A stretch of DNA of 64,000 bases from Bifidobacteriaceae bacterium (GTDB lineage: Bacteria; Actinomycetota; Actinomycetes; Actinomycetales; WQXJ01): positions 33,710 to 97,709 of the forward strand of contig JAISXH010000022.1 of assembly GCA_031270825.1 (NCBI GenBank), read 5' to 3'. This document shows, piece by piece, positions 4,114 to 18,360 of the stretch (within the stretch, counting starts at the first letter, position 1; every line of letters begins with the position of its first letter). Position numbers and translations under genes: made by a program. The notes beneath the pieces were generated by a model. It was not told the origin of the DNA, did no database searches, and saw only the letters and a list, made by a program, of their open reading frames with translations.

Positions 4114-4212
4114 GAAAAGATGCCTTCCGAATTAAGGACGAGGCGGGATGCGATCTGCGCACCCGGCACGGTGAAACTAGCACACTGTTCACCACCTTGG
4201 TGGCCGGCGGAT

Positions 4213-4242
4213 TTGACCTTGACGTTACGTCAAGATCTTGAC
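4213..4242. promoter_or_regulatory. Operator-like cluster of four TTGAC half-sites forming two overlapping perfect palindromes in the divergent YcaO-1 / docking-protein intergenic region
   Basis: Sequence is aTTGACcTTGACgttacGTCAAgatcTTGACt. CTTGACGTtACGTCAAG (4218-4234) is a perfect 8-1-8 dyad. GTCAAGATCTTGAC (4229-4242) is a perfect 14-bp palindrome. It lies 9-38 bp upstream of the 4251 ATG and about 100-130 bp upstream of the 4113 start. Confidence 0.45.
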
Positions 4243-4250
4243 TGGCAGCC

Positions 4251-6281
4251 ATGAGTCAACTCGCATCATCGCCAGTCCTGCCGAGGGCCGCAGATCCGGG
4301 CCGGGACGGCTCTAAGTTCACCCTTCGCCTGCGCGCAGACACTATGTACAGTGCATCCAACACCGGCGTTCGATTCTCCAATGTCACGAGTTCTTTCGAA
4401 ATTGCTGGCGACCATGCCTATAAGGCGTTCAAGGCCATCGCTCCGCTGCTCGACGGTTCTTACACCCGCGAGGACTTGGCCCGCGTGCTCGGCGGACCCA
4501 TGTGGGCGAAAGTGGAGGCCTTCGTCGAGCCGTTAGTATCCCGAGGATTCGTCCGCGAGATGGATCCCTGCCCCGACGTCGAGGTCTCGGACGAGGAACA
4601 GTCCAGATTCGCCGAACAGCTTTCGTTCATCGCCCAGTTCGTTGACGATCCAAAACGCCGCTTCGCCCGGTTTCGCGACTCCGAGATCGCTGTGGTGGCA
4701 GGCGGCGCGTTCGGAGAATGGGTCGGTCATGTGCTGGCCCGCAACGGACACCGGCGCCTTGTGGTGGTTGACGACCCGTTGGTCGAGCTGACCAAGTCTG
4801 CCAGTCGGCCTGCCGTACTGGTTATTCCACCGACGCCCGCTGGGGTCAAGCTGCTGGCCGACGGTCGGCTTGGCGATCTGGCCCAGTTAGTGTTGGCGGC
4901 CTCCGCTGTGGGAGACGACATAGTCATCGGCCCCTTGTCGGCCGCCGGAACTTCTCCAGTGACGTGGGCAGATGCGATCTCAGCGATGGCAGAGCATGAT
5001 TCGGCACGCGACGTCGCCCACTACTGGGCATCAGCCTGGGCCGGAGTCCACACGGGCTCCCCGGCCACCACGCTTCCCGCAGTGCAAAGACTGGCTGGAA
5101 CCTTCGCGGCAATCGACATATTCCGGGCCCTCACCGGCATCGCGGAATCGGAGACCGCTGACTCGGTTCTGGTGGTTGATTCGGCCCACGGCGAAGCCCG
5201 GCGCCATCGGGTGGTCCCCCACCGCCAGCTACATCGATCTAGACCAACTCTGCCGCCTGCTGGTAGAGGGGTGGGGGCGCTCAGGAGGAGCGCTCCCACC
5301 ACAGCCAGAGTGTCTCCCGAATGGGGACGCGTCTGCTCAACAGTCGCCGATTCATTGACTTCTCCGATCGTGGGATTCGAAGACGGCGACCTAGAGCAAC
5401 TGCCGGTCAAGGTATCCATCGCTCGCCTGGCGCTGGGCACGGCCGGGAGCGTTGCCGTGGGAGCGGCTGACCTGTGGGATGTCGCGGGGGCACGCGCTCG
5501 AGCTACCCGTCAGGCGTTGGCGTTGCGATTGGAGACCTGGGCCCCGTGGGAGGAATCCGACGGCCTTTTCAGGGGCCCTGATGTGGTGAGCGAGCTGGAC
5601 GGGATGATTGAGTCGAACGCTCGGTCCGTCGGGCCGCTGGTCCAAGGACGCGATCTGATCACCGACGACCTGGTCTGGGCGCCAGCGGCGGCGTTGGCCA
5701 CCATGTCCCTCGCCAATGCATCGGGCGTGTTCGCCCGGTCGGCCCTCGGCATAGGCGTCGGCTTGGACTACGACGAGGCCTTGGAGCGGGCTATCTCTTC
5801 AGCGGCCTCGCGCCGGGCGGTGTCCACGTTGGAGAGGCCGAGCCTGCCTGTGATTGATCTGGCCGATGAATCGCCGGAAGGTGTCTTCCTTCGCGAAAGC
5901 GCGAAACATGCTGGCGTGGAGATCGAAGTCTTGCGTGCGGGACGGCATCTTCAGCGCGATGTGGTGGTCGCACGGTGCCGGAGCGGGAACACGGCTCTGT
6001 GGGAGCTGGGGACCGGGCCGAGTGAGCACGAGGCGTGGGCGTCGGCGGTTGTAGGGGTCCTCGGGGCGGTCCGCAGAGCTCAGGCGGGCAAGCCACATTC
6101 CACTTGGACCATGACGGCCCTGCCCGCCTTCGATGCCATGGCCCTGGTGGCGGGTGTCCCCCAGGACAATCCGGGCGACGAGGCGCGAGCGTTCGCCTTT
6201 GACATCACGACTGACGAGGTGTCGGCGCTGGGCGTAGTTGCAGTTAAGGTGCTGACCGCAGCTGGGGAGGCGGTCCGATGA
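4251..6281 (+). CDS. TOMM/thiopeptide-type leader-binding docking protein (RRE + ThiF/E1-like, 'ocin-ThiF-like')
   Basis: N-terminal PqqD-like pattern 'IAPLLDGSYTREDLARVLGG...FVEPLVSRGFV'. Rossmann-like 'IAVVAGGAFGEWVGHVLARNG'. About 676 aa, sited between a YcaO and a SagB-type gene, with its stop overlapping the next ATG (ATGA at 6278). Confidence 0.65.
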   Translation: MSQLASSPVLPRAADPGRDGSKFTLRLRADTMYSASNTGVRFSNVTSSFEIAGDHAYKAFKAIAPLLDGSYTREDLARVLGGPMWAKVEAFVEPLVSRGFVREMDPCPDVEVSDEEQSRFAEQLSFIAQFVDDPKRRFARFRDSEIAVVAGGAFGEWVGHVLARNGHRRLVVVDDPLVELTKSASRPAVLVIPPTPAGVKLLADGRLGDLAQLVLAASAVGDDIVIGPLSAAGTSPVTWADAISAMAEHDSARDVAHYWASAWAGVHTGSPATTLPAVQRLAGTFAAIDIFRALTGIAESETADSVLVVDSAHGEARRHRVVPHRQLHRSRPTLPPAGRGVGALRRSAPTTARVSPEWGRVCSTVADSLTSPIVGFEDGDLEQLPVKVSIARLALGTAGSVAVGAADLWDVAGARARATRQALALRLETWAPWEESDGLFRGPDVVSELDGMIESNARSVGPLVQGRDLITDDLVWAPAAALATMSLANASGVFARSALGIGVGLDYDEALERAISSAASRRAVSTLERPSLPVIDLADESPEGVFLRESAKHAGVEIEVLRAGRHLQRDVVVARCRSGNTALWELGTGPSEHEAWASAVVGVLGAVRRAQAGKPHSTWTMTALPAFDAMALVAGVPQDNPGDEARAFAFDITTDEVSALGVVAVKVLTAAGEAVR

Positions 6282-7924
6282 GAACCACCGCGGGCCACAT
6301 GCGGACCGCCGAGGAGCCGTTGGCTTACCCAGGCGCCCGGCCGGGAACGGCGCTGACCGAACTCGGCGAAGACTGGCTCTCGATTCCCCTAGGAAGTGCG
6401 GCGCGTTGCTACGCCGACCTGATTTTCGATCGCGCCGCCAGCGGCATGCCGATCAAGAAATGGCCTGTCGACTGGGACGACGCACCGTGGCCGCAGAAGT
6501 TCTACCCGGCGGCGCAATTCACCAGTTTGCCCGATGTCGCACAGCCTGGAGGGTTGGCGGACACGGGTCGGGTGGAACTGGGTCGAGCCTTGTGGGACCT
6601 GATGTTCTATGCCTATGGGGTGGTGGCGCGACGCAGTCGAGTCAACAACAACGAGTCCACGGGCATGCTCATCAACGCCGAAGAGATCCGCTGGGGCCGG
6701 GGGGCTTCTTCCGGTGGAGGACGATACTGCGCCGGGGTCTATGTCGTGATCGGTCAAGGCCTCTCGCTGAGTTCGGGAATTTATCACTATTCGCCCATTT
6801 ACCACGGCCTTGAACTGCTTGCCGGAGGCGACTGGACCGGCGCTGTGGCCCACGCTCAAGGTTATGGCGCCGCCCAGTCTTGCTACCTGGTGATCTCGCT
6901 CAAATACTGGCAGTCAGCCTTCAAGTACAACGATTTCGCCGCTCAAGCGACCTGCATGGACCTGGGCACGTTGATGGGGACGTGGCGCTATCTCCTGGGA
7001 CCGTCTGCTGACATGATTCAGCCGGACCTGTGGGTGAACGAACCAGCCCTAGCCGGCATCCTGGGCATTGATTCGCAGGCCGAAGCCGTCGCCGCAGTCC
7101 TTGGCCTCGGCGGCGTCACCGCTTCACCGGTCGCCGCCAGACCCGCCCCAGCCATGCCGCAGGCGGACGAACGTTCCCGAGAGGTCTACACATTTGTCAC
7201 CCAGCGGGCGTTGCAACGCGATGCCCTGGCCGAGCGCGGGGTGCCGGCCGATTTGTCTGCGGACTTCCCGGTCCCGCAATCCCTAGCCTGGTCGGTCGAG
7301 ATCGATGCTGATGCCGCCGGCAGGATCGCCTCCACCCTTCGGCGCGAGACATCATTCGGGCGGTTCGATGGGATTCCGCTTCCGCGCCGCGCCCTGCTAG
7401 AGGCCCTGATCGAAAGCGACACGGCCCAGAACGTGACCGCCGGGACGTTCTCTGGGGCAAAGGATGGGGCTGTCAGCCTGTTCGTGTTGGTGAAGGGGGT
7501 CGAGGGTCTCGCTCCGGGCTGTTATAGGTACGACAGACCAAGTCAAGACTTGGAGCGAATCGGGGGACAGGAAGCAATGGCAGTCATTCAGCGACGCTAC
7601 TTTCTCAACAACTACGACCTGGGCAGGGCAGCTGCGGCAGTGATTTTCGCCGGAGACGTCGTAGCGGTCGCGGAGCGGTACGGAGTGCGCGGATACAGGG
7701 CCCTCAACACCGCTGTGGGCGCCGTCTGCCAACACCTCCATCTTGAATGCGCCCGAAGAGGGATAGGAGCGGGCGCCGCGCTCGGGGTCGACGCGGCCGC
7801 CGCAGCGGATGCTCTGAAGTTGGGGCGCAAGAGGCCCCGGCCGCTGCTGACCATGTTCCTCGGCCATGACCGACCGAACTCGGGTGCCCTCGACGTCCCA
7901 CTCGCTCCCGAAGGAAGCAGGTGA
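6278..7924 (+). CDS. SagB/ThcOx-type FMN-dependent azoline dehydrogenase (nitroreductase fold, two lobes)
   Basis: 'WGRGASSGGGRYCAGVYVVI' and second-lobe 'IQRRYFLNNYDLGRAAAAVIFAGD...GYRALNTAVGAVCQHLHLEC' resemble SagB-family motifs. Its context between the docking protein and LanB supports the call. Confidence 0.75.
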   Translation: MRTTAGHMRTAEEPLAYPGARPGTALTELGEDWLSIPLGSAARCYADLIFDRAASGMPIKKWPVDWDDAPWPQKFYPAAQFTSLPDVAQPGGLADTGRVELGRALWDLMFYAYGVVARRSRVNNNESTGMLINAEEIRWGRGASSGGGRYCAGVYVVIGQGLSLSSGIYHYSPIYHGLELLAGGDWTGAVAHAQGYGAAQSCYLVISLKYWQSAFKYNDFAAQATCMDLGTLMGTWRYLLGPSADMIQPDLWVNEPALAGILGIDSQAEAVAAVLGLGGVTASPVAARPAPAMPQADERSREVYTFVTQRALQRDALAERGVPADLSADFPVPQSLAWSVEIDADAAGRIASTLRRETSFGRFDGIPLPRRALLEALIESDTAQNVTAGTFSGAKDGAVSLFVLVKGVEGLAPGCYRYDRPSQDLERIGGQEAMAVIQRRYFLNNYDLGRAAAAVIFAGDVVAVAERYGVRGYRALNTAVGAVCQHLHLECARRGIGAGAALGVDAAAAADALKLGRKRPRPLLTMFLGHDRPNSGALDVPLAPEGSR

Positions 7925-7928
7925 CCTA

Positions 7929-10547
7929 ATGGAAGTGCTAGTAGACGAATACGTTCAATCTCGCGTCGCGGGTCTACCGGCACCTGTCTTGGCGAACCTG
8001 CGCACTAGCGCGGCGCTGCGCTGGGTCGGCGACCTTGACCAGGCCGAAGCTGCGCTGGCCGAGGCGGTTGAGGTAGCTACCGACGGTCTGTATGAGCTGA
8101 TCGGGAAAACAGATCGCGGTGTTGGGCGCAAGCACCTGGTCGAATTGCGCCGTAACCTGCATAACGGTCGCTACGACCGGGCGCGAGACAACCTGGACCG
8201 CGCTCCGGTGAGAGTACAGGAAACCGCTGCGGCCCTCGCCGAACCCGTATTCGCCGCCGCCAAGCGGCTCAAGGGCCTAGCTGAAATTGGCGAAAAGGCC
8301 TACCAGAACTGGCTCTTGGAAGAGCGACGCGGGCTGGGGAATCTCCTTGAAGAAGATGACTTCGCCCGCGGAATCGCCGTGGCGGCCCCGGCGGCGGCGA
8401 AAGACTTTCTCCGCTACCAGAAGGCCAGCGTGACGGGAGACGCCCTGACCAAGAACCAGCGTAAGGCAGAACGCAGCCTGCTGCAATATGCACTGCGCAC
8501 GGCCGCGAAAACATCTCCTTTCTCGAGCCTGACCCGCGTGGCCTTAGTGCGATGCGCTGACGGGGCCGCCAGGGATGACAGCGCCGAGACGCAGACCGTC
8601 GACGTCTCCCGGCCTTCGGTATACCCGATCTGCATCGCGCTCGATGCCTTGGGCCGGGACGAAGACGCCATCCTCCCGATGCGCGTCATGATAGCTCCAA
8701 TTATCGCAGAGGAGATGGACAACATGATCGTTGTCTATCGCTCTGAGTACGATTTTTCTGAAGCGACCGGAGAGGCCGACCAGGCGTCGGTTGTTGAATC
8801 GCTGGTGCGGATCGAACAGGGTCAGTTGTGCCGCATTGTCAAGGATGCCTACGAAGCCGGACATCGAACGGTAGCCACGCTAGTGGGTGCCATGGTCGAA
8901 TTGGGAATCACTCGAAAGACGGCGCTGGGGGCTATCCTCGAGCTGATCCGTCTGGGTTTTCTGATAGTTCCTGACCTGCGTTTTCACCCGCACATCGGCA
9001 CGGAAGCGACTCTCAGTTCGGTGGTTCGAAGGATCGACTCGCTCAAGACTGGAGAAGTAGGCCAAGCAGTCGCCGAATATGTCGATATTGCAGAATCGTT
9101 CTCCCATGTGGCCGACCTTTCCGAGCGCACATCCAAGATCGACTCGATCCGTGGGGCGGTGGAGCGTCTATACCAGGTCTCTGGTTGCCCTGGCGCACCG
9201 GTTCCCCATTCTGTGGTTTATGAAGATTCCGGACTGCTTGGCATTCGCGAACTACCCCGGTCCACGTTTGAGTTTGGTGGCGTCGACCGTCTCTTCACAT
9301 TGGCCGACATCCTCGACGACAACCAAGTTCCACGAGCGCTCCTGCGCGGGTTCTTCCTGAAGCTTTATGGGCCCGAGGGGCGCTGTCCCAACGTGCCGGC
9401 GTTCCTCGACGCCTTCAAGTCGGAACTGTACAACTCGTATCTCGGGCGAGATGACTCGAGTATTCGACGTGAGGCCGTCGCTTGCGATCCTTGGCTGCGC
9501 TGGGGTGAAGCTTGGCGATGGGACTCTGCTCGCGCCAGGTTGCTGGACCTCGTCGCCGCGGCGCCTCCCGAGGGGGGGCAGGTGGACATAGAGGAGTTCA
9601 TGGCGCCGGGTGGGCCGGTCATGGAATTGATGCCGGATGTCGTCTTTCCCTTCCGGCACATCAACCTGTTCGCCCAGATTGCTGAGGGCGGCACCCTAGT
9701 GGTCAACAACAGCTTTGGGGGGCCTGGCTTCGGCTTGTCGCGCTTTGCGCACCTCTTCGGAGGCGACGGAGAGAAGTGTGTCCGCTCGGTCGAACAGTTG
9801 GCCCGTTCGGCCGGAGTCTCCCTTCACGAACTACTCGGCGGCGCGGCAGTCACGAACCTGAATTTGCATGGTCCGCTGTTGGACGCTGAGTTGCGAATGC
9901 CAGGTGATCCCGAGGGGTCGCGGGCACGGCGGAGGACCGACATTTTCGACCTAGACCTCATTTACCGGGGCAGCCAACAACGGCTGGCGTTGGTCCACCG
10001 GTTCAGCGGCGAAGAGGTGATGCCCACGTACATGGGCTACCTGGTTCCTTTCGCCACTCCCACTTCCCATCAGTTGATCAGTCTGCTGGCACCTCCAGTC
10101 ACACTGGGGCGGGGCCTTTGGCGGGAGGAACAACCCACGAACGATCTGGAACAGGTCAAGGCCCGTCCCCGCGTGGTGATAGGCAACCGAATAGTTGTCA
10201 GCCGCGCCGCGTGGGACGTTCCCGCAGGATCTATTCCGGCGGAGGATCCGACATCTCCAGCCGGCCTAGTCGAGTGGCACCGCCGGTGGCGGTCGTTGGG
10301 ACTGCCTGACCTCTCGTACGTAACTATCAAGGACTCGTCGTCCAAGCGGCCAAAGCCCCGGTTCTATGACACGAGTTCGCTTCTCGCCTCGGCAACGCTA
10401 GCTCACGAATGGCGCACACGAGGCGGGGTTCTTCGGGTCACGGAGGCCCTTCCGGTCCCACCGCTACTGGACGACACGAGCAAGGCCCGAGTCGAAGAAT
10501 TCATCGTAGGTTTCAGCGCAATCGAAAGAACGGAGGAAGTGATATGA
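7929..10547 (+). CDS. Lantibiotic-dehydratase N-terminal (glutamylation) protein, split-LanB type
   Basis: 872 aa. 'LQYALRTAAKTSPFSSLTRVALV' and 'HINLFAQIAEGGTLVVNNSFGGPGFGLSRFAHLF' look like Lant_dehydr_N. The ATG at 7929 follows GAAGGAAGCAGG. The ORF-track start at 7866 overlaps the SagB gene. Confidence 0.8.
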   Translation: MEVLVDEYVQSRVAGLPAPVLANLRTSAALRWVGDLDQAEAALAEAVEVATDGLYELIGKTDRGVGRKHLVELRRNLHNGRYDRARDNLDRAPVRVQETAAALAEPVFAAAKRLKGLAEIGEKAYQNWLLEERRGLGNLLEEDDFARGIAVAAPAAAKDFLRYQKASVTGDALTKNQRKAERSLLQYALRTAAKTSPFSSLTRVALVRCADGAARDDSAETQTVDVSRPSVYPICIALDALGRDEDAILPMRVMIAPIIAEEMDNMIVVYRSEYDFSEATGEADQASVVESLVRIEQGQLCRIVKDAYEAGHRTVATLVGAMVELGITRKTALGAILELIRLGFLIVPDLRFHPHIGTEATLSSVVRRIDSLKTGEVGQAVAEYVDIAESFSHVADLSERTSKIDSIRGAVERLYQVSGCPGAPVPHSVVYEDSGLLGIRELPRSTFEFGGVDRLFTLADILDDNQVPRALLRGFFLKLYGPEGRCPNVPAFLDAFKSELYNSYLGRDDSSIRREAVACDPWLRWGEAWRWDSARARLLDLVAAAPPEGGQVDIEEFMAPGGPVMELMPDVVFPFRHINLFAQIAEGGTLVVNNSFGGPGFGLSRFAHLFGGDGEKCVRSVEQLARSAGVSLHELLGGAAVTNLNLHGPLLDAELRMPGDPEGSRARRRTDIFDLDLIYRGSQQRLALVHRFSGEEVMPTYMGYLVPFATPTSHQLISLLAPPVTLGRGLWREEQPTNDLEQVKARPRVVIGNRIVVSRAAWDVPAGSIPAEDPTSPAGLVEWHRRWRSLGLPDLSYVTIKDSSSKRPKPRFYDTSSLLASATLAHEWRTRGGVLRVTEALPVPPLLDDTSKARVEEFIVGFSAIERTEEVI

Positions 10548-11608
10548 CTTCCCAATTGACACCCATCCGAGCATCCTTGATCGGCCGGCGGCCCGAGTGG
10601 CTATCGTTCCACATTTTCTATGGCTCCAACCCGCTTGGACTCCTCACCCGCTGTGTCCGCCCGCTCGTCCACCAGCTCAAGACTGAAGGCAAACTGGAGC
10701 GGTGGTTCTACATTAACTATTGGCTAGAGGGCAACCACATCCGCTTGCGCCTAGGCGTCCCGGACAAGGCGACCGCGACAGAAGTCGAAATGCGGGTCAC
10801 TGTAGCTGTGGAGGAATACTTGGCGCTCAACCCCTCTTTTCATCCGGCAGCCGAATTGGAGTCGACGGACTATTACGCTGAGCTGTTCGAGGCCGAGTTT
10901 TCCGCAGAAGAACGCGGGCAATACTTCAACGCCGACGGCACGCCAATACTGCAGCCGGACAACAGCGTTCGGATACGCCGTTACGAACCCGAGTGGGACC
11001 GCTACGGAGGCGCCAAGGGCGTTGAGATCGCAGAGGAGCACTTCGAGCTCTCAGCGGAGATCGCCTCCAAACTCATAGCTAAAGGGAACATGTCGGTGCG
11101 CAGCTTCCAGCTCGGTGTCGGCGCCGAGCTTATGGCTGTTCTTGTCGGCGTCCTGTTCCCGAATCCGGCCACCGGGCGGGCCTTCCTTGAGAATTATCAC
11201 GCCCGCTGGAGTGGCATGTTCGGCACGACGAAGAACTATGTTGAGCGCCACAATCAGGGACGGTTCACCGACAATCGCCGCGTCATGATGAACCATGTGG
11301 TCCCCGTGTGCCAGGCCGCACGGGCCGGTGGCCACGGCCTCACAGGTGTGCTCAAGGAATGGCACGACGCTGTGACTCACACGCGCAACCGTCTGGAGGA
11401 CGTAGGCCGGAACGAGGAGTTGCGCTTCGCTTGGGAAGGAGGCGAGGAGACCACCAGCGACATTGACCGCCTGTGCTGGCGGGAGGGCTTTTCGCTTCAG
11501 CACATGATGGACAATCGCCTCCTGCTGTCGGTCTCTGATGAGGCTTATCTGTCTTTCGAACTCCTCAAAGCGCTTGAGACGGCGGATGTGGATGAGGTGG
11601 CAGTATGA
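10544..11608 (+). CDS. SpaB_C / thiopeptide-type bacteriocin biosynthesis domain protein (glutamate-elimination enzyme or [4+2] pyridine synthase; not distinguishable by eye)
   Basis: 'WLSFHIFYGSNP...LERWFYINYWLEGNHIRLRL' is the characteristic N-terminal pattern of the Lant_dehydr_C family. ATGA overlap with the LanB stop at 10544-10547. Confidence 0.75.
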   Translation: MTSQLTPIRASLIGRRPEWLSFHIFYGSNPLGLLTRCVRPLVHQLKTEGKLERWFYINYWLEGNHIRLRLGVPDKATATEVEMRVTVAVEEYLALNPSFHPAAELESTDYYAELFEAEFSAEERGQYFNADGTPILQPDNSVRIRRYEPEWDRYGGAKGVEIAEEHFELSAEIASKLIAKGNMSVRSFQLGVGAELMAVLVGVLFPNPATGRAFLENYHARWSGMFGTTKNYVERHNQGRFTDNRRVMMNHVVPVCQAARAGGHGLTGVLKEWHDAVTHTRNRLEDVGRNEELRFAWEGGEETTSDIDRLCWREGFSLQHMMDNRLLLSVSDEAYLSFELLKALETADVDEVAV

Positions 11609-12735
11609 ACCGCACAGCTGACGCGCGAACTTGGAGCCCGAGCCTCTCGGACCGCCTATTGATTGGACCACCCACGTGGAACGGCGGGGCCATGACAGCT
11701 GAGATCGCCTTGGCGGGAGAAGCTCGAACTTGGAATGCTGGCCTGCTCGAACTCCTCGTTTTGGAGTCGATCGACGGCGAACGCGACATCCCCGCCATTG
11801 CGGCACACGTATCTGAACGGACCGGCCGTGCGGTCGAAACCGGGATGGTTGGTCAAGTCGTCGGACGGTTGGCGGTCAACGGCATCGTACAACGTGACTT
11901 GGGTGTGGAGACCGAATCGATGCGCCAGGCGGACGCTCGATCCGATGAAGCAGCGAAGGCGATGGACGGCGTCGAACGCATCGATCAGGGGCTCTTTGGA
12001 ACGCTATCTAGTGCCATGTGGAAGCTCGGACGGCGCCTTCCTACCGTCGGGATCGCTTCGGTGGCGGCCGGCGCGGCTCTTGCCGCCGTAGCACTTTTCG
12101 CCGTGAACGCTGATGTCTACCTGGCAGCGTTGCGAGCTGTGCGCCATGGGCGGGCGGCCGATGCCGTGATCGCGCTGGTGGCGTGCCTCGCCTGGCAGCT
12201 CCTAGTTATCGTGGCGCACGAATTCGCTCACGGACTGACCTTTAGTTCGATCAACATCCGCCGGCCAGTCCTTGCGCTAACCAAAGTCGGGCGCAGGACC
12301 CTGCCCAACACTCAGCTAGACGGACTGTGGCTGGTGCCTTCCACCGCTCGGCGGCTAGCTGTGGTGGCGGTCGGCCCGCTCATCTCAATCTCATCGGCGA
12401 TCGTGCCCGCTGCCGTGCTCGTGGTCACAGCGCCAAGCTCGCTCTTGGCTGACTGGGCGGTATTCGCCCTAAGCATGGAAATCCTAATGGCCGTCCTCAA
12501 CCTGGGCCCATTTCGCTATTCCGACGGCACACGGCTTATCGAATCCTGGGCGAGGTGTCGCAACCTGCCGGCCCTCGCTGTCGCAAGGGTCGTGGCTAAA
12601 CAGCCGCTCCGGGCCGGTGTCCCCAGGCGGGCCCGCCGCGCCATCGCCGCCTACCTGCCCGCGTCAGGTCTCAGCTCGCTCTTGCTGCTTGCAGCGGCCG
12701 CCCTGTGGGTCTTGACCGTACTGGGGGTCGTCTAA
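11605..12735 (+). CDS. Fusion of a PqqD-like (RRE-type) N-terminal domain to an M50-like polytopic metallopeptidase
   Basis: 'HEFAHGLTF' (HExxH) and 'NLGPFRYSDGTRL' (NxxPxxxxDG) with at least 5 hydrophobic helices. The N-terminal 'LLELLVLESIDGERDIPAIAAHVSERTGRAVETGMVGQVVGRLAVNGIVQ' follows the PqqD/RRE pattern. ATGA overlap with the preceding gene. Confidence 0.7.
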   Translation: MNRTADARTWSPSLSDRLLIGPPTWNGGAMTAEIALAGEARTWNAGLLELLVLESIDGERDIPAIAAHVSERTGRAVETGMVGQVVGRLAVNGIVQRDLGVETESMRQADARSDEAAKAMDGVERIDQGLFGTLSSAMWKLGRRLPTVGIASVAAGAALAAVALFAVNADVYLAALRAVRHGRAADAVIALVACLAWQLLVIVAHEFAHGLTFSSINIRRPVLALTKVGRRTLPNTQLDGLWLVPSTARRLAVVAVGPLISISSAIVPAAVLVVTAPSSLLADWAVFALSMEILMAVLNLGPFRYSDGTRLIESWARCRNLPALAVARVVAKQPLRAGVPRRARRAIAAYLPASGLSSLLLLAAAALWVLTVLGVV

Positions 12736-12768
12736 CGCCCCATTCCCCGCGAAAGCGGAACCCAAAGC

Positions 12769-12790
12769 TTCGAGGCCACCAGGCCTCGAG
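12769..12790 (+). other. Stem-loop between peptidase gene and precursor gene (plus GNRA hairpin CCGCgaaaGCGG at 12747-12758)
   Basis: tTCGAGGCC-acca-GGCCTCGAg forms an 8-9 bp stem with a 4-nt loop. No T-tract follows. Confidence 0.35.
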
Positions 12791-12868
12791 GGGGCAGCGG
12801 GCCAGCCGGTCCGCGCCAAAACCTGAATGATCCGGGCCAATTGGCCCCAGAACCACAAAGGAGCACCC

Positions 12869-13048
12869 ATGTCCAACACCGATATCGCGGGCCTTGCCGC
12901 CGAGCTTGACGCTCTGAACGCCGAGACGCTGGAAGTCAAGGATTACGTCGACTACTCCGACGCAGCCTTCGCCTCAAGTTCGTCCTGCAGTTCGACCACT
13001 TCCACGTGCTCGTCCTGCAGCTCGACATCGTCGTGCGCCGCGCTGTGA
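12869..13048 (+). CDS. RiPP precursor peptide (59 aa): acidic helical leader + Ser/Thr/Cys-only core
   Basis: The ATG at 12869 lies 7 nt after AAAGGAG. Sequence: MSNTDIAGLAAELDALNAETLEVKDYVDYSDAAFA-SSSSCSSTTSTCSSCSSTSSC-AAL. It sits inside the biosynthetic operon, directly upstream of the ABC exporter. Confidence 0.85.
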   Translation: MSNTDIAGLAAELDALNAETLEVKDYVDYSDAAFASSSSCSSTTSTCSSCSSTSSCAAL

Positions 13049-13058
13049 CCGGCCGGCA

Positions 13059-13130
13059 CCGACAGTAGGCCGCAATGGCGGCTGTCGGAGGGGTCCGGGC
13101 GCGGTCTAGGCCGTTCTAAACCCCTCCGAC
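13059..13130 (+). terminator. Two mutually exclusive stem-loops immediately after the precursor stop (possible partial terminator / mRNA-stabilising hairpin)
   Basis: CCGACAG(13059-13065)/CTGTCGG(13082-13088) competes with GTCGGAGGGGT(13084-13094)/ACCCCTCCGAC(13120-13130), which is an 11-bp stem. No clear U-tract. Confidence 0.4.
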
Positions 13131-13174
13131 ACCGCCTTGAACCGCAGTTCGATTCCTACAAGAGGAGGCACGCA

Positions 13175-14173
13175 GTGAGCACTTCCGGCCTAGCGCTATT
13201 CATGGGCAACAGTCGTGTGCGAGACCTTTCCGGCAGCCCGATCCAGGCGAAACCGCCGAAGGCCGACTCGCCCGCCATCGCAGCACGAGGCGTCAGCAAG
13301 ACCTACGGGACCGTGGCAGCCCTGACTGACGTGGATCTCGAGGTCGCCCCCGGCGAGTTCTACGGGCTAATCGGGCCTAACGGAGCCGGCAAGACCACTC
13401 TGATGGAGATTATCCAAGGGTTGCTTGCCGCAGATTCGGGAACCATTTCGATACTCGGCGGTAGACCCGCCGACCGTTCTCCGGCGCTCCTGCGCCGGGT
13501 TGGCATCCAGCCCCAGAACACCGCTTTCTTCACGCGGGCGACCGCCCGTGAACACCTAACAACACTGGCCGACATCTACAGGGTTGAGCGGCGCCGAGTC
13601 GACTCGACGCTCGAGGCTTTCGGATTGGTCAGCGCGGCAAAGACGCGCGTGGACAAACTCTCGGGCGGAGAACGCCAGAAGCTGGCCGTGGCTTCGGCGA
13701 TGCTCCACGACCCGGAAGTGCTGTTCCTGGATGAACCCACAGCCGCGATGGACACCGAGTCGCGGGCCGAATTGGTCCACATGCTTAAGGGCCTTCGCGC
13801 CGGAGCGACCACCGTTCTTTACACCACCCATCTGCTGCACGAAGCAGAACGTCTGTGCGACCGGATCGCCATTCTTGACCACGGACAGATCATAGCGAAT
13901 GACACACCCGCTCAGTTGCTGGCTGATTCAGGTTTGCCTAGCCGCATCATTCTGCCGCTGGAGGCCGGCCGACTGGACCGGATCAAGTCCCTTCCCGAAG
14001 TGTTGGAAATCGACCTGCGAGACGGGCAGGTCGAAATCGCCGTCATGGCGGCAGGACCGGCGCTGGCCGCCTTGGTTCGTGCCGGTCTGGACGTGTCCGA
14101 CGTCCGTGTCGAGGCGGCGACTTTGGAAGACGTCTTTCTACGGCTCTCTGGAAAGGAGCACCACGATGAATAG
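13175..14173 (+). CDS. ABC transporter ATP-binding protein
   Basis: Walker A 'GPNGAGKTT', signature 'LSGGERQK', Walker B 'VLFLDEPT'. The GTG at 13175 follows AGAGGAGG. Confidence 0.95.
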   Translation: MSTSGLALFMGNSRVRDLSGSPIQAKPPKADSPAIAARGVSKTYGTVAALTDVDLEVAPGEFYGLIGPNGAGKTTLMEIIQGLLAADSGTISILGGRPADRSPALLRRVGIQPQNTAFFTRATAREHLTTLADIYRVERRRVDSTLEAFGLVSAAKTRVDKLSGGERQKLAVASAMLHDPEVLFLDEPTAAMDTESRAELVHMLKGLRAGATTVLYTTHLLHEAERLCDRIAILDHGQIIANDTPAQLLADSGLPSRIILPLEAGRLDRIKSLPEVLEIDLRDGQVEIAVMAAGPALAALVRAGLDVSDVRVEAATLEDVFLRLSGKEHHDE

Positions 14174-14909
14174 CTTTGTGTCTCTGGCGAGGGCGCAAGG
14201 GCGAGCCAGCCTGCGCGATCCCGCGACGTTGTTCTTTACTTTCCTCTTCCCCGTCCTCCTGCTGGTGGTGTTCTCGCGGGCGTTCGGTCAGGCGGCGGGG
14301 CCTGATGGTGTTCTCGCGATGCAGGCGGTGGGCCCGAACGTGGTGGCTTTCGGCGCCGCCTATGTTGGGATGTTCACGGCTTCCCAGTCGCTGGTCGAGT
14401 GGCGCGCATCCGGAATGAGCCGGGTCCTTTTCGCCGCGCCGGTCCGAACCGGCGGAGTGCTGGCTGCGAATCTGGCGGTCGGTCTGGCTTTGGGGCTCGC
14501 CCAGGCCGGGATCCTGGTGGCGTTGTCCGTGTTGCCGGGCCTCAACATGTCGCTGTCCGCTAGCGCCTGGCTGGCCCTACCAGTCGTGACGCTGGGCATA
14601 GCGGCCTTCTTCAGCATTGGCATGGTGATAGGGGCGCTGTGTAAGACGGTGGCGTCAGCCGCAGGTGCGATCAACGCAGTCGTTTTACCCATGGCCTATG
14701 TCTCTGGCGCTATGCTCCCGGCGGAACTCTTGCCGGACTGGGCCACTGCGATCGGTCGCGCTCTGCCGATGCGCTATATGGTCGAAGCGATTGGCGGCAG
14801 CCTGACCGGAGTGGCGCCGTCGTCCACGATCGGTCTGGGAGCAATCGTCTTGGCTGGGGTCGCGGCATTATTCTTTGGTGGCGCCACGAAGATCGTAAAA
14901 TGGCTGTGA
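14166..14909 (+). CDS. ABC-2 type transporter permease
   Basis: The ATG at 14166 overlaps the ATPase stop. Six hydrophobic segments, and the size and position are typical of ABC-2 exporter permeases. The ORF-track start at 13899 lies inside the ATPase gene. Confidence 0.8.
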   Translation: MNSFVSLARAQGRASLRDPATLFFTFLFPVLLLVVFSRAFGQAAGPDGVLAMQAVGPNVVAFGAAYVGMFTASQSLVEWRASGMSRVLFAAPVRTGGVLAANLAVGLALGLAQAGILVALSVLPGLNMSLSASAWLALPVVTLGIAAFFSIGMVIGALCKTVASAAGAINAVVLPMAYVSGAMLPAELLPDWATAIGRALPMRYMVEAIGGSLTGVAPSSTIGLGAIVLAGVAALFFGGATKIVKWL

Positions 14910-14912
14910 CCA
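14763..14912 (+). repeat. Left copy of 150-bp direct repeat (3' end of permease gene + first codons of YcaO-2)
   Basis: Hand alignment to 18127..18276 shows 5 mismatches in 150 nt. Confidence 0.9.
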
Positions 14913-16600
14913 CGCCGGCTGAGACTGGCGCTAAATGGATCCGCCGCCTTGGATTCGACACCGTTCTAGTTCACCCGGCACCGGCCAAGGACGCTCTTGG
15001 CTTCGAGCAGGAGCTGCAGCGGCGATCAGCCGACCTCGCCGAGAAGTTTGTTTTCGCAGGCGGCTCCGATGCTGGTGGCCGTGAGCTGACAAACGGGCCA
15101 AGCCGTTTTCCTGGTGCCAGCGGGTTGGCCGACGCGGTCCAGGATTTCGCCAACGAGTGCGGACTGTGGCAAGGGTCCAATGACGAGGCTGTCCTATGGC
15201 CCGTGCTTGAGATCGACTCGCGGGCCTGCACCCTCAGGCGCTTCGGCATCCGAACGGCTCCGAGTGACGGGTTGCGGGCAGTCAGCCCCGACCCTGGCCG
15301 TCGCGGCGGGCTGTCGCGCGAATCCCCTCTGGAAGCACTCGATCTCCCTCCAGACGTGGCGGCCGGACAGGGTTTGGGTTACCTCGGTAACACCGGCGCA
15401 TGGGGCCTTGAGTGGACCACGGCCGCACCGGTTTCCGACAAGGTTTGGATCGATGTCGGTGGAAGACCCTTTGAATTGAACTGGTCAGGACACGAGAACA
15501 CTTACGAACTGTCGTTGCGGTCATGCGTGCTGGAAGGATTGGAGCGCACGGCTGGAGCGCTTGGCGGCGGAACGCAGGTCGTTGTCTCCCCTGCGGTTGA
15601 ACTCGACGCGAGGTTCATGTCCCCCGGCGCGTTCGGACGCTACCCGGACTCCGCGTACGAGCATGAGCTGGTCGCGTTCGATCCAGCAGAGAGCCATGAG
15701 TGGGTGGAAGCACAGAGTCTCACGAGTGGCGAACCCGTGTATGTGCCGGTGGAGCTGGTGCATTATGGACGTCACGTTGCGCGCCGTTGGGCCTTTGGCA
15801 CGTCCTCAGGTTGGGCGGTCGGTTCGACATCGGAAGAGGCGGCATTCTTCGGACTGGTCGAGCTTCTCGAGAGAGACGCGATTGTCTCCAGCTGGTACGG
15901 TGGGATCTCCCCGACGCCGGTCAACGCGTCAACCGTGGAAGAAGTTCAAGACATATTGTCCAGGGCCGCTCTCCTCGACTGTCAGTTTCATGTCAGCCAA
16001 GTCCCATCTCAAATCGGGATGCCCGTCATGGTCGCGGTTGCCAAATCGCCGGAGGCCGCCGTGTTCGGATCGGCTGCACATCCCGATCCGCGCCGGGCTT
16101 TGATCGGCGCGGTCAACGAGGCCTGGGCCTACTTGCCGGAGAGGGAACGCACGGCGCGGAGGTTGCGGTCTAGGGGCCTCCTGCCGAAGGCGGGGCCAGC
16201 TAACGTGGAAACCATTGACGACCACGCCTCGTTGGCATTCGAGCCAACCCTCCTGATCGGCCTGGACAGATTCACGCATGACGACAGCATCGCCGGGTTC
16301 CCCGTCGGCGACATAGGGCCTTGGCATCCAAACGCCCTGGCCGAACGCGGACCTCTGGGCGCAGCAGTCGATCAGTTGGCCGGACACGGTCTCGAGGCTC
16401 TAGTTGTCGCAGCGTCTTCTCCGACAGCCCAATCCATGGCTGTCCATGTGGTGGCATCTCTCGTGCCCGGTCTGGTTCCAATCGATTTCGGATATCGCCG
16501 CCAACGGGCGCCGCAGATGGACCGAATCCTCGAACTGGCTGAGCTGTTCACCGGGCAGCGCCCCGAAGCGCCGTGGCCCGAACTCCACCCCTTCAGCTGA
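14900..16600 (+). CDS. Second YcaO-domain protein (YcaO-2), stand-alone
   Basis: 'WAFGTSSGWAVGSTSEEAAFFGLVELLERDAIVSSWYGG' and C-terminal 'SLVPGLVPIDFGYRRQRAP'. The start overlaps the permease stop by 10 nt. Confidence 0.9.
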   Translation: MAVTTPAETGAKWIRRLGFDTVLVHPAPAKDALGFEQELQRRSADLAEKFVFAGGSDAGGRELTNGPSRFPGASGLADAVQDFANECGLWQGSNDEAVLWPVLEIDSRACTLRRFGIRTAPSDGLRAVSPDPGRRGGLSRESPLEALDLPPDVAAGQGLGYLGNTGAWGLEWTTAAPVSDKVWIDVGGRPFELNWSGHENTYELSLRSCVLEGLERTAGALGGGTQVVVSPAVELDARFMSPGAFGRYPDSAYEHELVAFDPAESHEWVEAQSLTSGEPVYVPVELVHYGRHVARRWAFGTSSGWAVGSTSEEAAFFGLVELLERDAIVSSWYGGISPTPVNASTVEEVQDILSRAALLDCQFHVSQVPSQIGMPVMVAVAKSPEAAVFGSAAHPDPRRALIGAVNEAWAYLPERERTARRLRSRGLLPKAGPANVETIDDHASLAFEPTLLIGLDRFTHDDSIAGFPVGDIGPWHPNALAERGPLGAAVDQLAGHGLEALVVAASSPTAQSMAVHVVASLVPGLVPIDFGYRRQRAPQMDRILELAELFTGQRPEAPWPELHPFS

Positions 16601-16648
16601 CGGTAGCCAACTTGGCTGAGCCGCCTGGAACCAACGAAAGACCGAAAC

Positions 16649-17275
16649 ATGCATGACACCGCAGCCTCGCAGGCATCCGTCGTAAGCGTGGACGCGCAGC
16701 CGTCCTTCCGGATCCCTAATCCCGCCGTGGTCTTACGATGGGCCACCCTCTACTACGCGATCGCGGCGGCCGTCGCCCGTCCGGTGATCGGCGGGTTGGC
16801 TGCCGCCGTCGCAGTAGGCCTGGCTTGGGCACCGCCGATCCCGGGCTTCGGGACAGCCCGACAAGGCCTTGAGGTCAGTCCTGTGGCTGCGCCGGAGTCC
16901 TCTCACCGTGTCCCACGGCGGCTTCGTCAAGCGGTGCTTGCCACCTCCTGGCTTGAAGCTGTGGTGTTCGGCGCGGGAGGACTGGTCTCTTGGGCCGTGG
17001 ATGAGTTGGCCGCTTGGCCCATCGCAGTCGCGGTGGCCGCCACCTGCCATATCACAACTGTCGGCCTGGTCGCACGGCGGATCATTGACGCGTTCGCCCT
17101 GCCGATCGCCTGGGCGTCCTGCGTGGCAGCACTGGCAGTCACCGTACAAGACGGCCACCCCTTGCGTGGTTGTGCGATCGCTGCTGCGACACTCGCCCTG
17201 GTCACCGCGAGTTATGCTCGCCACATCGGTATTCGGGAGACTTCTTCCAAGGCCGAGGACGGTGGCTTGCGATGA
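16649..17275 (+). CDS. Hypothetical integral membrane protein (about 4 TM helices)
   Basis: Ala/Val/Leu-rich hydrophobic segments. Its stop overlaps the next ATG (ATGA at 17272). I recognise no motif. Confidence 0.5.
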   Translation: MHDTAASQASVVSVDAQPSFRIPNPAVVLRWATLYYAIAAAVARPVIGGLAAAVAVGLAWAPPIPGFGTARQGLEVSPVAAPESSHRVPRRLRQAVLATSWLEAVVFGAGGLVSWAVDELAAWPIAVAVAATCHITTVGLVARRIIDAFALPIAWASCVAALAVTVQDGHPLRGCAIAAATLALVTASYARHIGIRETSSKAEDGGLR

Positions 17276-17760
17276 GCGGGCTGCCGATCCGCGTGGTGAC
17301 GTTTTCCCGACACGGTTCCACCGATGAGGTGGGCAGGTGGGTCGCGCGATCCTTGGCGGGGTTAGTTGATGCTTCGGTCTACCAAAATGATTCGACCGGC
17401 GATCCGGAGACAGGCCTTGGCGCGGCGAGCAGGGTTGTGGTCGGAATGCCTGTCTACGCCAACCATTGGCGTCCGGAGGCGCGGCGCTTCCTGAACCGCT
17501 GCGCGTCAACCTTAGGGCAACGGGAGGTCTGGCTCTTCACCTGTTCGCTCGGCGGTGGCTTGGACGACCTGGACCACCTCGAGCCAGAGCTTGTGCCAGT
17601 AGGTCTAGCCCATTTCGGAGGCAAACTGGACTGGGATCGTCTGGCCGTCCCCGAGCGCATGCTGATGCGGGCCCTCGGCCAAACGTCGTGCGATCGGCGC
17701 TCGCGCGCGGATGTCGAAGCCTGGGCCGCTTCGATTGTGCGAACTGCGGCGTTGACCTAG
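17272..17760 (+). CDS. Flavodoxin-like domain protein (HemG/flavodoxin_5-like)
   Basis: 'IRVVTFSRHGSTDEVGRWVA' resembles the flavodoxin phosphate-binding loop. About 162 aa, with 'VVVGMPVYANHW' and 'VWLFTCS' beta-strand patterns. Confidence 0.55.
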   Translation: MSGLPIRVVTFSRHGSTDEVGRWVARSLAGLVDASVYQNDSTGDPETGLGAASRVVVGMPVYANHWRPEARRFLNRCASTLGQREVWLFTCSLGGGLDDLDHLEPELVPVGLAHFGGKLDWDRLAVPERMLMRALGQTSCDRRSRADVEAWAASIVRTAALT

Positions 17761-18126
17761 AGGGCGGCTAGACCGATTTCGGCAGGCTTCGTGATCGCAT
17801 GGAGCACTGGCCGCCTGAAGGGAGTTTGGCACTCTGGGCCCCAATTCTCGCCGCTTGCCGGAGCGATTCAGCCGGTCGGGGTGGCCCTTGAACCGGAGTT
17901 CTGCCGCTTGATGGCGTGAGTCGTGCGTCGGGCTTGTGGCTTGGGGGTTCGGTGACGGTTTGGCGGGAATGTGTCACTTAGCCGGGTGGCGACCTCTGCG
18001 GGTGCGGGGTCCAGCGTGCGAGCAAGAAGGGCAAGCGCGGTGGGCTGGTTGGCCGGAACCGCAGGCCCGCGTCCCCTTGCGTACTGTGCCTTTGCGGAAT
18101 CAGCACAATCACCGTCCCCTTGCGTA

Positions 18127-18360
18127 CTGCCGATGCGCTATATGGTCGAAGCGATTGGCGGCAGCCTGACCGGGGTGGCGCCGTCGTCCGCGATCGGTCT
18201 GGGAGCAATCGTCTTGGCTGGGGTCGCGGCGTTGTTCTTTGGTGGCGCCACGAAGATCGTCAAATGGCTGTGACCAGCTCGAGAGGTTTGTTCGCGGAGG
18301 CTGCGCCGACGCTGGCGGCCGCCCGCCGCCAAACAGGCTAAACCGCTTCGCCAGCGCCAA
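18127..18360 (+). pseudogene. Remnant copy of the permease 3' end / YcaO-2 5' end junction (right copy of direct repeat plus decayed YcaO fragment)
   Basis: 18127-18276 matches 14763-14912 at 145/150 positions. 18281-18360 aligns more loosely (about 70% by eye) to 15041-15125, with about 128 bp (14913-15040) missing. A 16-bp direct repeat GTCCCCTTGCGTACTG (18071 and 18114) sits at the left junction. Confidence 0.8.

Follow-up and report, generated by a model that had tools for sequence, protein, structure and literature searches.

The YcaO-2 locus

A putative gene cluster for a ribosomally made, post-translationally modified peptide (RiPP) was analyzed in the genome of an uncultured Bifidobacteriaceae bacterium (GenBank assembly GCA_031270825.1, contig JAISXH010000022.1, positions 33,710 to 97,709 of the forward strand). 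This stretch of 64,000 nucleotides (nt) is referred to as the window, and coordinates are those within it. The analysis centred on the second of two YcaO genes in the cluster (YcaO-2) and on the two genes that follow it, which code for an orphan membrane protein and a small Flavodoxin_5 protein (the pair). The three genes of this trio are as follows.

14900-16600, + strand, YcaO-2, 566 amino acids (aa); PF02624 at 8e-55
16649-17275, + strand, orphan polytopic membrane protein, 208 aa; no family match
17272-17760, + strand, Flavodoxin_5 protein, 162 aa; PF12724 at 2.8e-14

A preliminary description of the window, made from the sequence without database searches, had given this gene order, these sizes and the span 14900-17760, and the open reading frames (ORFs) on the + strand agree with it throughout; the YcaO core and the flavodoxin-like identity that it had recognized are borne out by the two Pfam matches. 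It had also placed the start of YcaO-2 within the stop region of the upstream permease gene and joined the pair by an ATGA overlap. Both features are present: the YcaO-2 ATG (14900) lies 10 nt within the end of the permease gene, the stop codon of which occupies 14907-14909, and the membrane protein and flavodoxin genes share the ATGA at 17272-17275. YcaO-2 and the membrane protein gene are separated by 48 nt. No promoter or terminator was predicted on the + strand within the gene block and no intrinsic terminator on the + strand from 12.7 to 18.6 kb, and an Rfam scan of the surroundings of the trio detected neither riboswitches nor other RNA elements. The best explanation for the segment 14900-17760 is that it forms the 3' end of a single long operon (4251-17760).

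Conservation of the membrane protein/flavodoxin pair

The pair was found in five loci only, all from uncultured Bifidobacteriaceae known as metagenome-assembled genomes (MAGs): the window and the loci L001, L002, L006 and L007. It stands directly after YcaO-2 in 5/5 loci, and all proteins more than 44% identical to the flavodoxin for which contigs were read belong to the same order of YcaO-2, membrane protein and flavodoxin. The five loci represent three deep lineages (L001, L006 and L007 share about 93% identity), between which YcaO-2 is 52-55% identical and synonymous sites are saturated. Purifying selection acts on each of the three genes: the ratio of nonsynonymous to synonymous substitution rates (dN/dS) is 0.16-0.21 in YcaO-2, 0.2-0.4 in the flavodoxin gene and 0.34-0.68 in the membrane protein gene. 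In the gene calls, the two genes of the pair overlap by 4 nt in the window, L001 and L007, gaps of 21-45 nt separate them in L002 and L006, and in four loci out of five YcaO-2 lies 48-154 nt from the membrane protein gene.

Downstream, the readable flanks all differ from one another. The window has a relic sequence (described below) and then a phosphoenolpyruvate carboxykinase (PEPCK) gene, L007 has an unrelated ORF, and L002 has a frameshifted YcaO-1, the other YcaO of the cluster, and the pair there lies enclosed by two cluster genes, YcaO-2 and YcaO-1. The YcaO-1 homologue of L002 (3061-4865) directly follows the flavodoxin gene and is split by the frameshift into ORFs at 3061-3882 and 3825-4865. 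There it shares the strand of the flavodoxin gene, whereas YcaO-1 of the window is found on the opposite strand and at the far end of the cluster, so within this clade YcaO-1 has no fixed place.

These data bear on the possibility that both genes of the pair are passengers which contribute nothing to the peptide pathway. Their absence from nearly all related clusters (see below), and their place in the window at the cluster edge beside the housekeeping PEPCK gene, would fit that description. However, they were never found without YcaO-2, they are embedded between two cluster genes in L002, and they persist although synonymous sites have diverged to saturation and the sequences downstream are not alike. 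Mere passengers are thus quite unlikely.

The cluster and its wider family

The remaining genes of the cluster and its flank are listed below.

4251-6281, + strand, ocin-ThiF-like (F) protein; TIGR03693 at 1.9e-12 over the N-terminal part, TIGR03882 and ThiF matches weak
6278-7924, + strand, SagB-type flavin mononucleotide (FMN) dehydrogenase, the sole SagB of the cluster; TIGR03605 at 2.3e-30
7866-10547, + strand, LanB-type dehydratase N-terminal protein; PF04738 at 1.9e-19
10541-11608, + strand, Lant_dehydr_C protein, the only copy; PF14028 at 8.6e-36
11605-12735, + strand, membrane protein with an HEFAHG motif; no Pfam match
12827-13048, + strand, precursor peptide with core SSSSCSSTTSTCSSCSSTSSCAAL; NF033400 at 3.5e-10, TIGR03892 at 7.8e-9
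13175-14173, + strand, ATP-binding cassette (ABC) transporter ATPase; PF00005 at 1.3e-32
14166-14909, + strand, ABC-2 permease; PF01061 at 6.9e-24
2284-4113, - strand, YcaO-1, 609 aa; PF02624 at 3.4e-58
453-1337 and 1387-2265, two tandem MerR-family regulators, directly upstream of the cluster and beside YcaO-1; PF13411 at about 1e-17 each

The PEPCK gene downstream of the cluster is convergent with it. The longest ORF for the Lant_dehydr_C protein begins at 10409, inside the upstream gene, and the start at 10541 appears more plausible. The precursor ORF as listed codes for 73 aa; homologous loci begin at a corresponding internal Met (MSN(A/T)DIAGL...), and translation probably begins at the Met at 12869, giving 59 aa. 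L006 has the same core peptide and L001 one with a single residue changed, despite enzymes that are only about 55% identical. The positional counterpart of the HEFAHG protein in Streptomyces (L003) has a faint Peptidase_M50 record.

The top curated model for the Lant_dehydr_C protein is that of the thiopeptide pyridine synthases (TbtD/PbtD), with a score of 79 bits (cutoff 325). As the single protein of this kind scores so far under the pyridine-synthase cutoff, a linear product like goadsporin appears more likely than a macrocyclic thiopeptide; the counterpoint is that the precursor matches thiopeptide precursor models.

A genome scan with one genome per species gave 79 loci, of which one is L001 and 78 are outside the MAG clade. 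The cluster so revealed is highly conserved and occurs in Streptomyces, Micromonospora, Kitasatospora, Cellulosimicrobium, Catenulispora and Actinomadura, and also in Corynebacterium belfantii. Its genes usually run in the order (F protein), YcaO, SagB, LanB-N, LanB-C, (M50-like protein), ABC ATPase, ABC-2 permease, YcaO. A YcaO gene follows the ABC ATPase in 67 of the 78 loci, with an M20 amidohydrolase (peptidase) gene at most 2.5 kb downstream in 60 of those 67. The permease match ends just before the YcaO in 56/70 loci, and gene calls of Streptomyces and Virgisporangium show a 4-nt permease/YcaO overlap. The gene maps of these clusters hold one SagB-matching region only. When profile hidden Markov models (HMMs) of the pair were run against all six-frame ORFs of the other YcaO-anchored loci, neither gene was detected at an expectation value (E) of up to 1.

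Because the ABC-then-YcaO order is kept in 67 of 78 loci from which the pair is absent, YcaO-2 is the positional counterpart of the second YcaO of the family, which is a core gene, and the pair is a lineage-specific occupant of a slot usually held by the M20 peptidase. For genome mining, the second YcaO of this family should be read as a core enzyme and not as a stand-alone tailoring enzyme. The fixed and self-contained trio proposed in the preliminary description therefore stands in part: the three genes are linked in every locus that has the pair, but YcaO-2 counterparts occur without it in 67/78 loci. The comparison of gene neighbourhoods of YcaO-2 relatives suggested there has the same two sides, with linkage in three lineages and no locus of the wider family that carries the pair. 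The proposal that the flavodoxin makes up for the single SagB is weakened, in that relatives with one SagB match need no flavodoxin.

A self-contained module would have YcaO-2 make a subset of the azolines (for instance on Ser/Thr) and the flavodoxin oxidize exactly those. Strict adjacency in all five loci is what such a module predicts, the remodelling of the YcaO-2 N-terminal domain co-distributes with the pair, and the 155-nt repeats that bracket the trio would make it movable or losable as a unit. More than 60 clusters nevertheless have YcaO-2 counterparts and one SagB with no flavodoxin, no residue-level signature of Ser/Thr specificity was found, and reading-frame overlap couples only the membrane protein and the flavodoxin, YcaO-2 being set off by 48-154 nt in 4/5 loci. 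On balance such a module is unlikely.

The closest described relative is coryneazolisin, a class of thiazole/oxazole-modified peptide clusters defined from sequence by two D proteins, LanB-like dehydratases, the lack of a [4+2] enzyme and a Cys/Ser/Thr-rich core (Cox, Doroghazi and Mitchell 2015, PMC4603692). The precursor of the C. belfantii locus (L011) is the one described for coryneazolisin (PMC4603692), and this locus has its gene order in common with the window. Coryneazolisin clusters likewise have two YcaOs, LanB-like dehydratases, a single Lant_dehydr_C protein, no clear [4+2] enzyme and a Ser/Thr/Cys-rich core (PMC4603692). In the window, two YcaOs, LanB-like proteins and a Cys/Ser/Thr-rich core are present, and the absence of a [4+2] enzyme is likely, the match being weak at 79 bits. 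The window differs in the addition of the pair, in the inversion of YcaO-1 and in a YcaO-2 without a recognizable fused C-type domain; both systems are known from sequence only. In a neighbour-joining tree of YcaO C-terminal domains, the second YcaO of L011 groups with YcaO-2.

The cluster of Streptomyces, Micromonospora and Kitasatospora shares with the window the order from SagB to the second YcaO, the permease/YcaO overlap and precursors that are alike in leader, ETFE(I/V)xDY, and in core. It differs in that an M20 amidohydrolase, sometimes with a luciferase-like oxidoreductase, follows the second YcaO in place of the pair, and its second YcaO, unlike YcaO-2, has a TIGR03882 Cys4 domain and passes the SagD cutoff (see below). 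Precursors of the Streptomyces-type cluster resemble ...ETFEISDYSDASEVVLAGSTSTSSTSTCSSTTSTTSCSA. In the literature, the name coryneazolisin was found only in the 2015 survey (PMC4603692), no report was found of a product for this cluster family, the Streptomyces core sequence was unmatched, and nothing was found that links M20 peptidases to thiopeptides. The presence of the family in dozens of Streptomyces genomes with no product report found is noteworthy in itself.

YcaO-2 and its N-terminal region

The YcaO domain of YcaO-2 spans residues 196-525 (PF02624, 186.9 bits against a cutoff of 25.7). Its ATP/Mg motifs are intact, SxxxxxLEGLER and EEAxxxGLxELLERD (Sx5-LExxER and ExxERD), and the corresponding stretches, SLRSCVLEGLER and EEAAFFGLVELLERD, are invariant in the YcaO alignment. 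The SagD-type model TIGR03604 remained the top family (177.9 bits, 2.8e-52), at a score under its curated cutoff of 219.25; the thioamidation-type YcaO model gave 1e-16 and methan_mark_1 gave 61 bits against a cutoff of 365. The closest solved structures were the azoline-forming TruD, LynD and MusD. The PxPxP-like tail attributed to YcaO-2 in the preliminary description proved degenerate: the protein ends in LHPFS and its MAG relatives in PHPFS or PHPLS, against PHPFP in the rest of the family, YcaO-1 included. The conserved NGC motif reads SGW in YcaO-2.

The N-terminal region differs more. In the second YcaOs of Streptomyces and Virgisporangium it is the leader-binding domain TIGR03882 (cyclo_dehyd_2; 84-105 bits, CxxC...CxxC), and these proteins clear the SagD cutoff at 310-328 bits. 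In YcaO-2 and its four MAG relatives, residues 1-195 matched no HMM at E up to 1 and cysteines are absent at the positions aligned to the Cys4 motif. Assignment of this region as cyclo_dehyd_2 was rejected, as hhalign of the MAG domain against that of Streptomyces gave no similarity (probability 0.2%). In the AlphaFold2 model, residues 1-181 have a predicted local distance difference test score (pLDDT) below 50, and the N-terminus of about 195 aa resembles no known domain. From the alignments, YcaO-2 appears to have lost in this lineage the Cys4 cyclo_dehyd_2 docking domain of its relatives.

YcaO-1, 29% identical to YcaO-2, keeps two CxxC pairs (CVPC and CDPTC, aligned to the Cys4 motif of the family) and the PHPFP tail; its N-terminal domain is recognized by no HMM. 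In tblastn searches, the Streptomyces second YcaOs score better against YcaO-1 of the window than against YcaO-2. A metagenome scan with the YcaO-2 alignment returned one distant relative only (27% identity).

The absence of an E1/ThiF-like or TfuA partner, as put forward earlier, holds with respect to TfuA, in that scans of ten cluster proteins against Pfam and NCBIfam reported no TfuA family, and no second ThiF-like protein is present. It fails with respect to the ocin-ThiF-like protein (4251-6281), the only E1-like or leader-binding candidate of the cluster. Because its own Cys4 docking domain appears lost, YcaO-2 probably relies on this single protein for leader binding. We infer that YcaO-2 would still act as a backbone-activating cyclodehydratase.

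Stand-alone YcaOs include the enzyme of amidine formation in bottromycin biosynthesis, and YcaOs acting with TfuA carry out thioamidation. YcaO-2 resembles them in having a YcaO domain and no recognizable fused E1-like domain, and differs in a cluster with ocin-ThiF-like and SagB proteins, no TfuA reported, and an azoline-type top match. A switch of YcaO-2 to amidine, thioamide or other backbone-activation chemistry, with the pair as its new partners, would agree with the sub-cutoff TIGR03604 score (178 against 219 bits), the LHPFS tail, the change of NGC to SGW and the replacement of the Cys4 N-domain by sequence that matches nothing assignable. The SagD type nevertheless still leads (2.8e-52 against 1e-16 for thioamidation), TruD, LynD and MusD are the top structures, no TfuA family was reported, and the core is Ser/Thr/Cys-rich as in the rest of the family. 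We consider such a switch very unlikely.

The Flavodoxin_5 protein

The 162-aa protein matched PF12724 (Flavodoxin_5) at 54.1 bits, against a cutoff of 27, and no NCBIfam model at E up to 0.01, so that no curated HemG-type name applies. Its structural model (pLDDT 90) gave Foldseek matches with probability 1.0 and TM-scores of up to 0.63 to flavodoxins, WrbA and the flavodoxin domains of flavodiiron proteins. Each of the eight residues that do not vary in the family is retained, those of the SRHGST phosphate loop among them, and a loop is shortened. The flavodoxin fold is predicted with confidence, and the protein may bind FMN.

The wider family is actinobacterial and of about 165-185 aa, the nearest relatives outside the clade being 25-33% identical. 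Among the distant relatives for which contigs were read (n=3), two have universal-stress genes as neighbours and the third has other redox genes, and none has a YcaO or a homologue of the membrane protein nearby. As the distant relatives sit beside stress and redox genes and away from YcaO, the flavodoxin appears to have been recruited from a general redox family. A metagenome scan with the flavodoxin alignment returned no relatives. The two relatives with universal-stress neighbours are about 26-27% identical to the 162-aa protein: that of L008 (6001-6558) is accompanied by genes for a GAF-sensor kinase and a response regulator, and that of L089-L091 by an HSP20 gene. Both neighbourhoods are reminiscent of hypoxia/dormancy regulons.

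In the preliminary description, the combination of a YcaO with a small flavodoxin was not known to be characterized, and this agrees with the literature search, in which no paper was found that describes such a pairing or a HemG with a RiPP.

The orphan membrane protein

The preliminary description had given the 208-aa protein four transmembrane segments; its hydropathy suggests about six hydrophobic segments instead (two in 26-67, then 96-117, 119-143, 144-167 and 171-190). The protein is conserved across the five loci at 35-40% identity, with invariant residues that include H134, R143, R144, D147 and W155. It has no family match in Pfam or NCBIfam, and an exhaustive phmmer search of 1.84 billion representative proteins gave two matches, one to a fragment of the same protein and one to its L001-type homologue. 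Two candidate relationships were rejected. Assignment as a peptidase had only a weak Peptidase_M50B match in one of the five members, the sole Pfam result at E up to 10, and a link to the M50-like protein of the cluster was dismissed by hhalign (probability 0.3%).

The location and the rate of change of this protein raise the possibility that the pair serves self-protection of the producer, or a function associated with export, instead of tailoring. The pair directly follows the ABC transporter block at the operon end, where immunity genes often sit, and the orphan membrane protein is exclusive to this cluster and fast evolving (dN/dS up to 0.68). Against this, a flavodoxin has no obvious role in immunity, and the one found here is under clear purifying selection with its FMN phosphate-loop residues kept. 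Self-protection therefore seems improbable.

Proposed role of the pair

With a probability of roughly 0.5, we propose that the cluster is of the coryneazolisin/goadsporin-like kind, that YcaO-2 is one of its core cyclodehydratases, and that the pair is a lineage-restricted redox accessory of the pathway. The product would be a linear peptide with azoles and dehydroalanines, made by an uncultured member of the Bifidobacteriaceae. YcaO-2 together with YcaO-1 would form azolines on the Ser/Thr/Cys-rich core. The membrane protein and the flavodoxin, by analogy with HemG, could form an FMN redox unit anchored in the membrane, at the service of the oxidative chemistry throughout the pathway and not of YcaO-2 as its private partner, for example as an oxygen-independent electron outlet for the dehydrogenation of azolines to azoles, which would be useful in a presumably anaerobic host. 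Service to the pathway is likelier than a private YcaO-2 oxidase because more than 60 clusters run two YcaOs and one SagB with no flavodoxin.

HemG is a menaquinone-dependent, oxygen-independent protoporphyrinogen dehydrogenase and belongs to Pfam Flavodoxin_5. The analogy of electrons passed to the membrane is based on this shared family and on the likeness of two small FMN-type proteins of flavodoxin fold; the 162-aa protein differs in that it fits no NCBIfam model and has a shorter loop than the generic actinobacterial family. Goadsporin reportedly arises by the action of a cyclodehydratase, an FMN dehydrogenase and a split LanB dehydratase on a linear peptide, with one fused cyclodehydratase. 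It resembles the window in azoles, LanB-type dehydration and the lack of a pyridine synthase, and differs in that it is not known to involve a flavodoxin or the orphan membrane protein. The berninamycin and TP-1161 thiopeptide clusters also have more than one YcaO-type gene, and the window precursor matches thiopeptide models; those clusters have a dedicated pyridine synthase and paired dehydrogenases, whereas the window has one SagB and one Lant_dehydr_C protein.

Several points weigh against the proposal of a redox accessory beside a core cyclodehydratase. YcaO-2 scores under the curated SagD cutoff and its C-terminal tail is changed, so that altered chemistry is possible. The more than 60 relatives with one SagB match manage without the pair. 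The five loci are three lineages of one small clade, and the conserved gene order could therefore partly reflect shared ancestry. The MAG YcaOs lie on long branches of the neighbour-joining tree, as do those of Corynebacterium, and orthology of YcaO-2 consequently rests mainly on gene position. The anaerobic habit of the host is presumed from taxonomy, and no cofactor or quinone site is recognizable in the membrane protein.

A more specific and more tentative idea, which we regard as doubtful, is that the pair is an undescribed oxygen-independent electron-transfer module for the maturation of ribosomal peptides, either a membrane-coupled azoline oxidase or an outlet for electrons from SagB, or else a new partner system of the remodelled YcaO without its docking domain, that evolved in anaerobic gut Bifidobacteriaceae. 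What is new here is an orphan membrane protein and a flavodoxin-like protein beside a remodelled second YcaO, in a cluster family that is itself common and known from sequence. If the pair is indeed a redox accessory, an azole pathway that normally uses an oxygen-recycled FMN dehydrogenase would have been adapted to an anaerobic host, and a first function would be at hand for the orphan membrane protein and for a branch of small Flavodoxin_5 proteins.

A direct repeat around the trio

The trio is bracketed in the window by a direct repeat, followed by a fragment of YcaO-2.

14758-14912, left copy of the repeat, 155 nt; the 3'-terminal 150 nt of the permease gene and a further 3 nt
18122-18276, right copy of the repeat; a relic of the last 48 aa of the permease, with 47/48 residues identical
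18277-18360, decayed relic of the YcaO-2 5' region; about 73% identical to nt 133-230 of YcaO-2 (blastn 1.9e-7)

The two copies are 95% identical, are spaced by 3364 nt and enclose the YcaO-2, membrane protein and flavodoxin genes. About 124 nt have been deleted from the YcaO-2 relic at a GACC microhomology. The repeat and the fragment together look like the relic of a second permease/YcaO-2 junction, which could have arisen by duplication or by allele exchange with the permease end as a homology arm; mis-assembly may also be the source of the repeat. The event is recent relative to the age of the trio and therefore does not explain the origin of the trio. Recombination between the copies would excise exactly YcaO-2 and the pair and leave the permease intact, and the direct repeats suggest that natural variants with and without the trio may exist.

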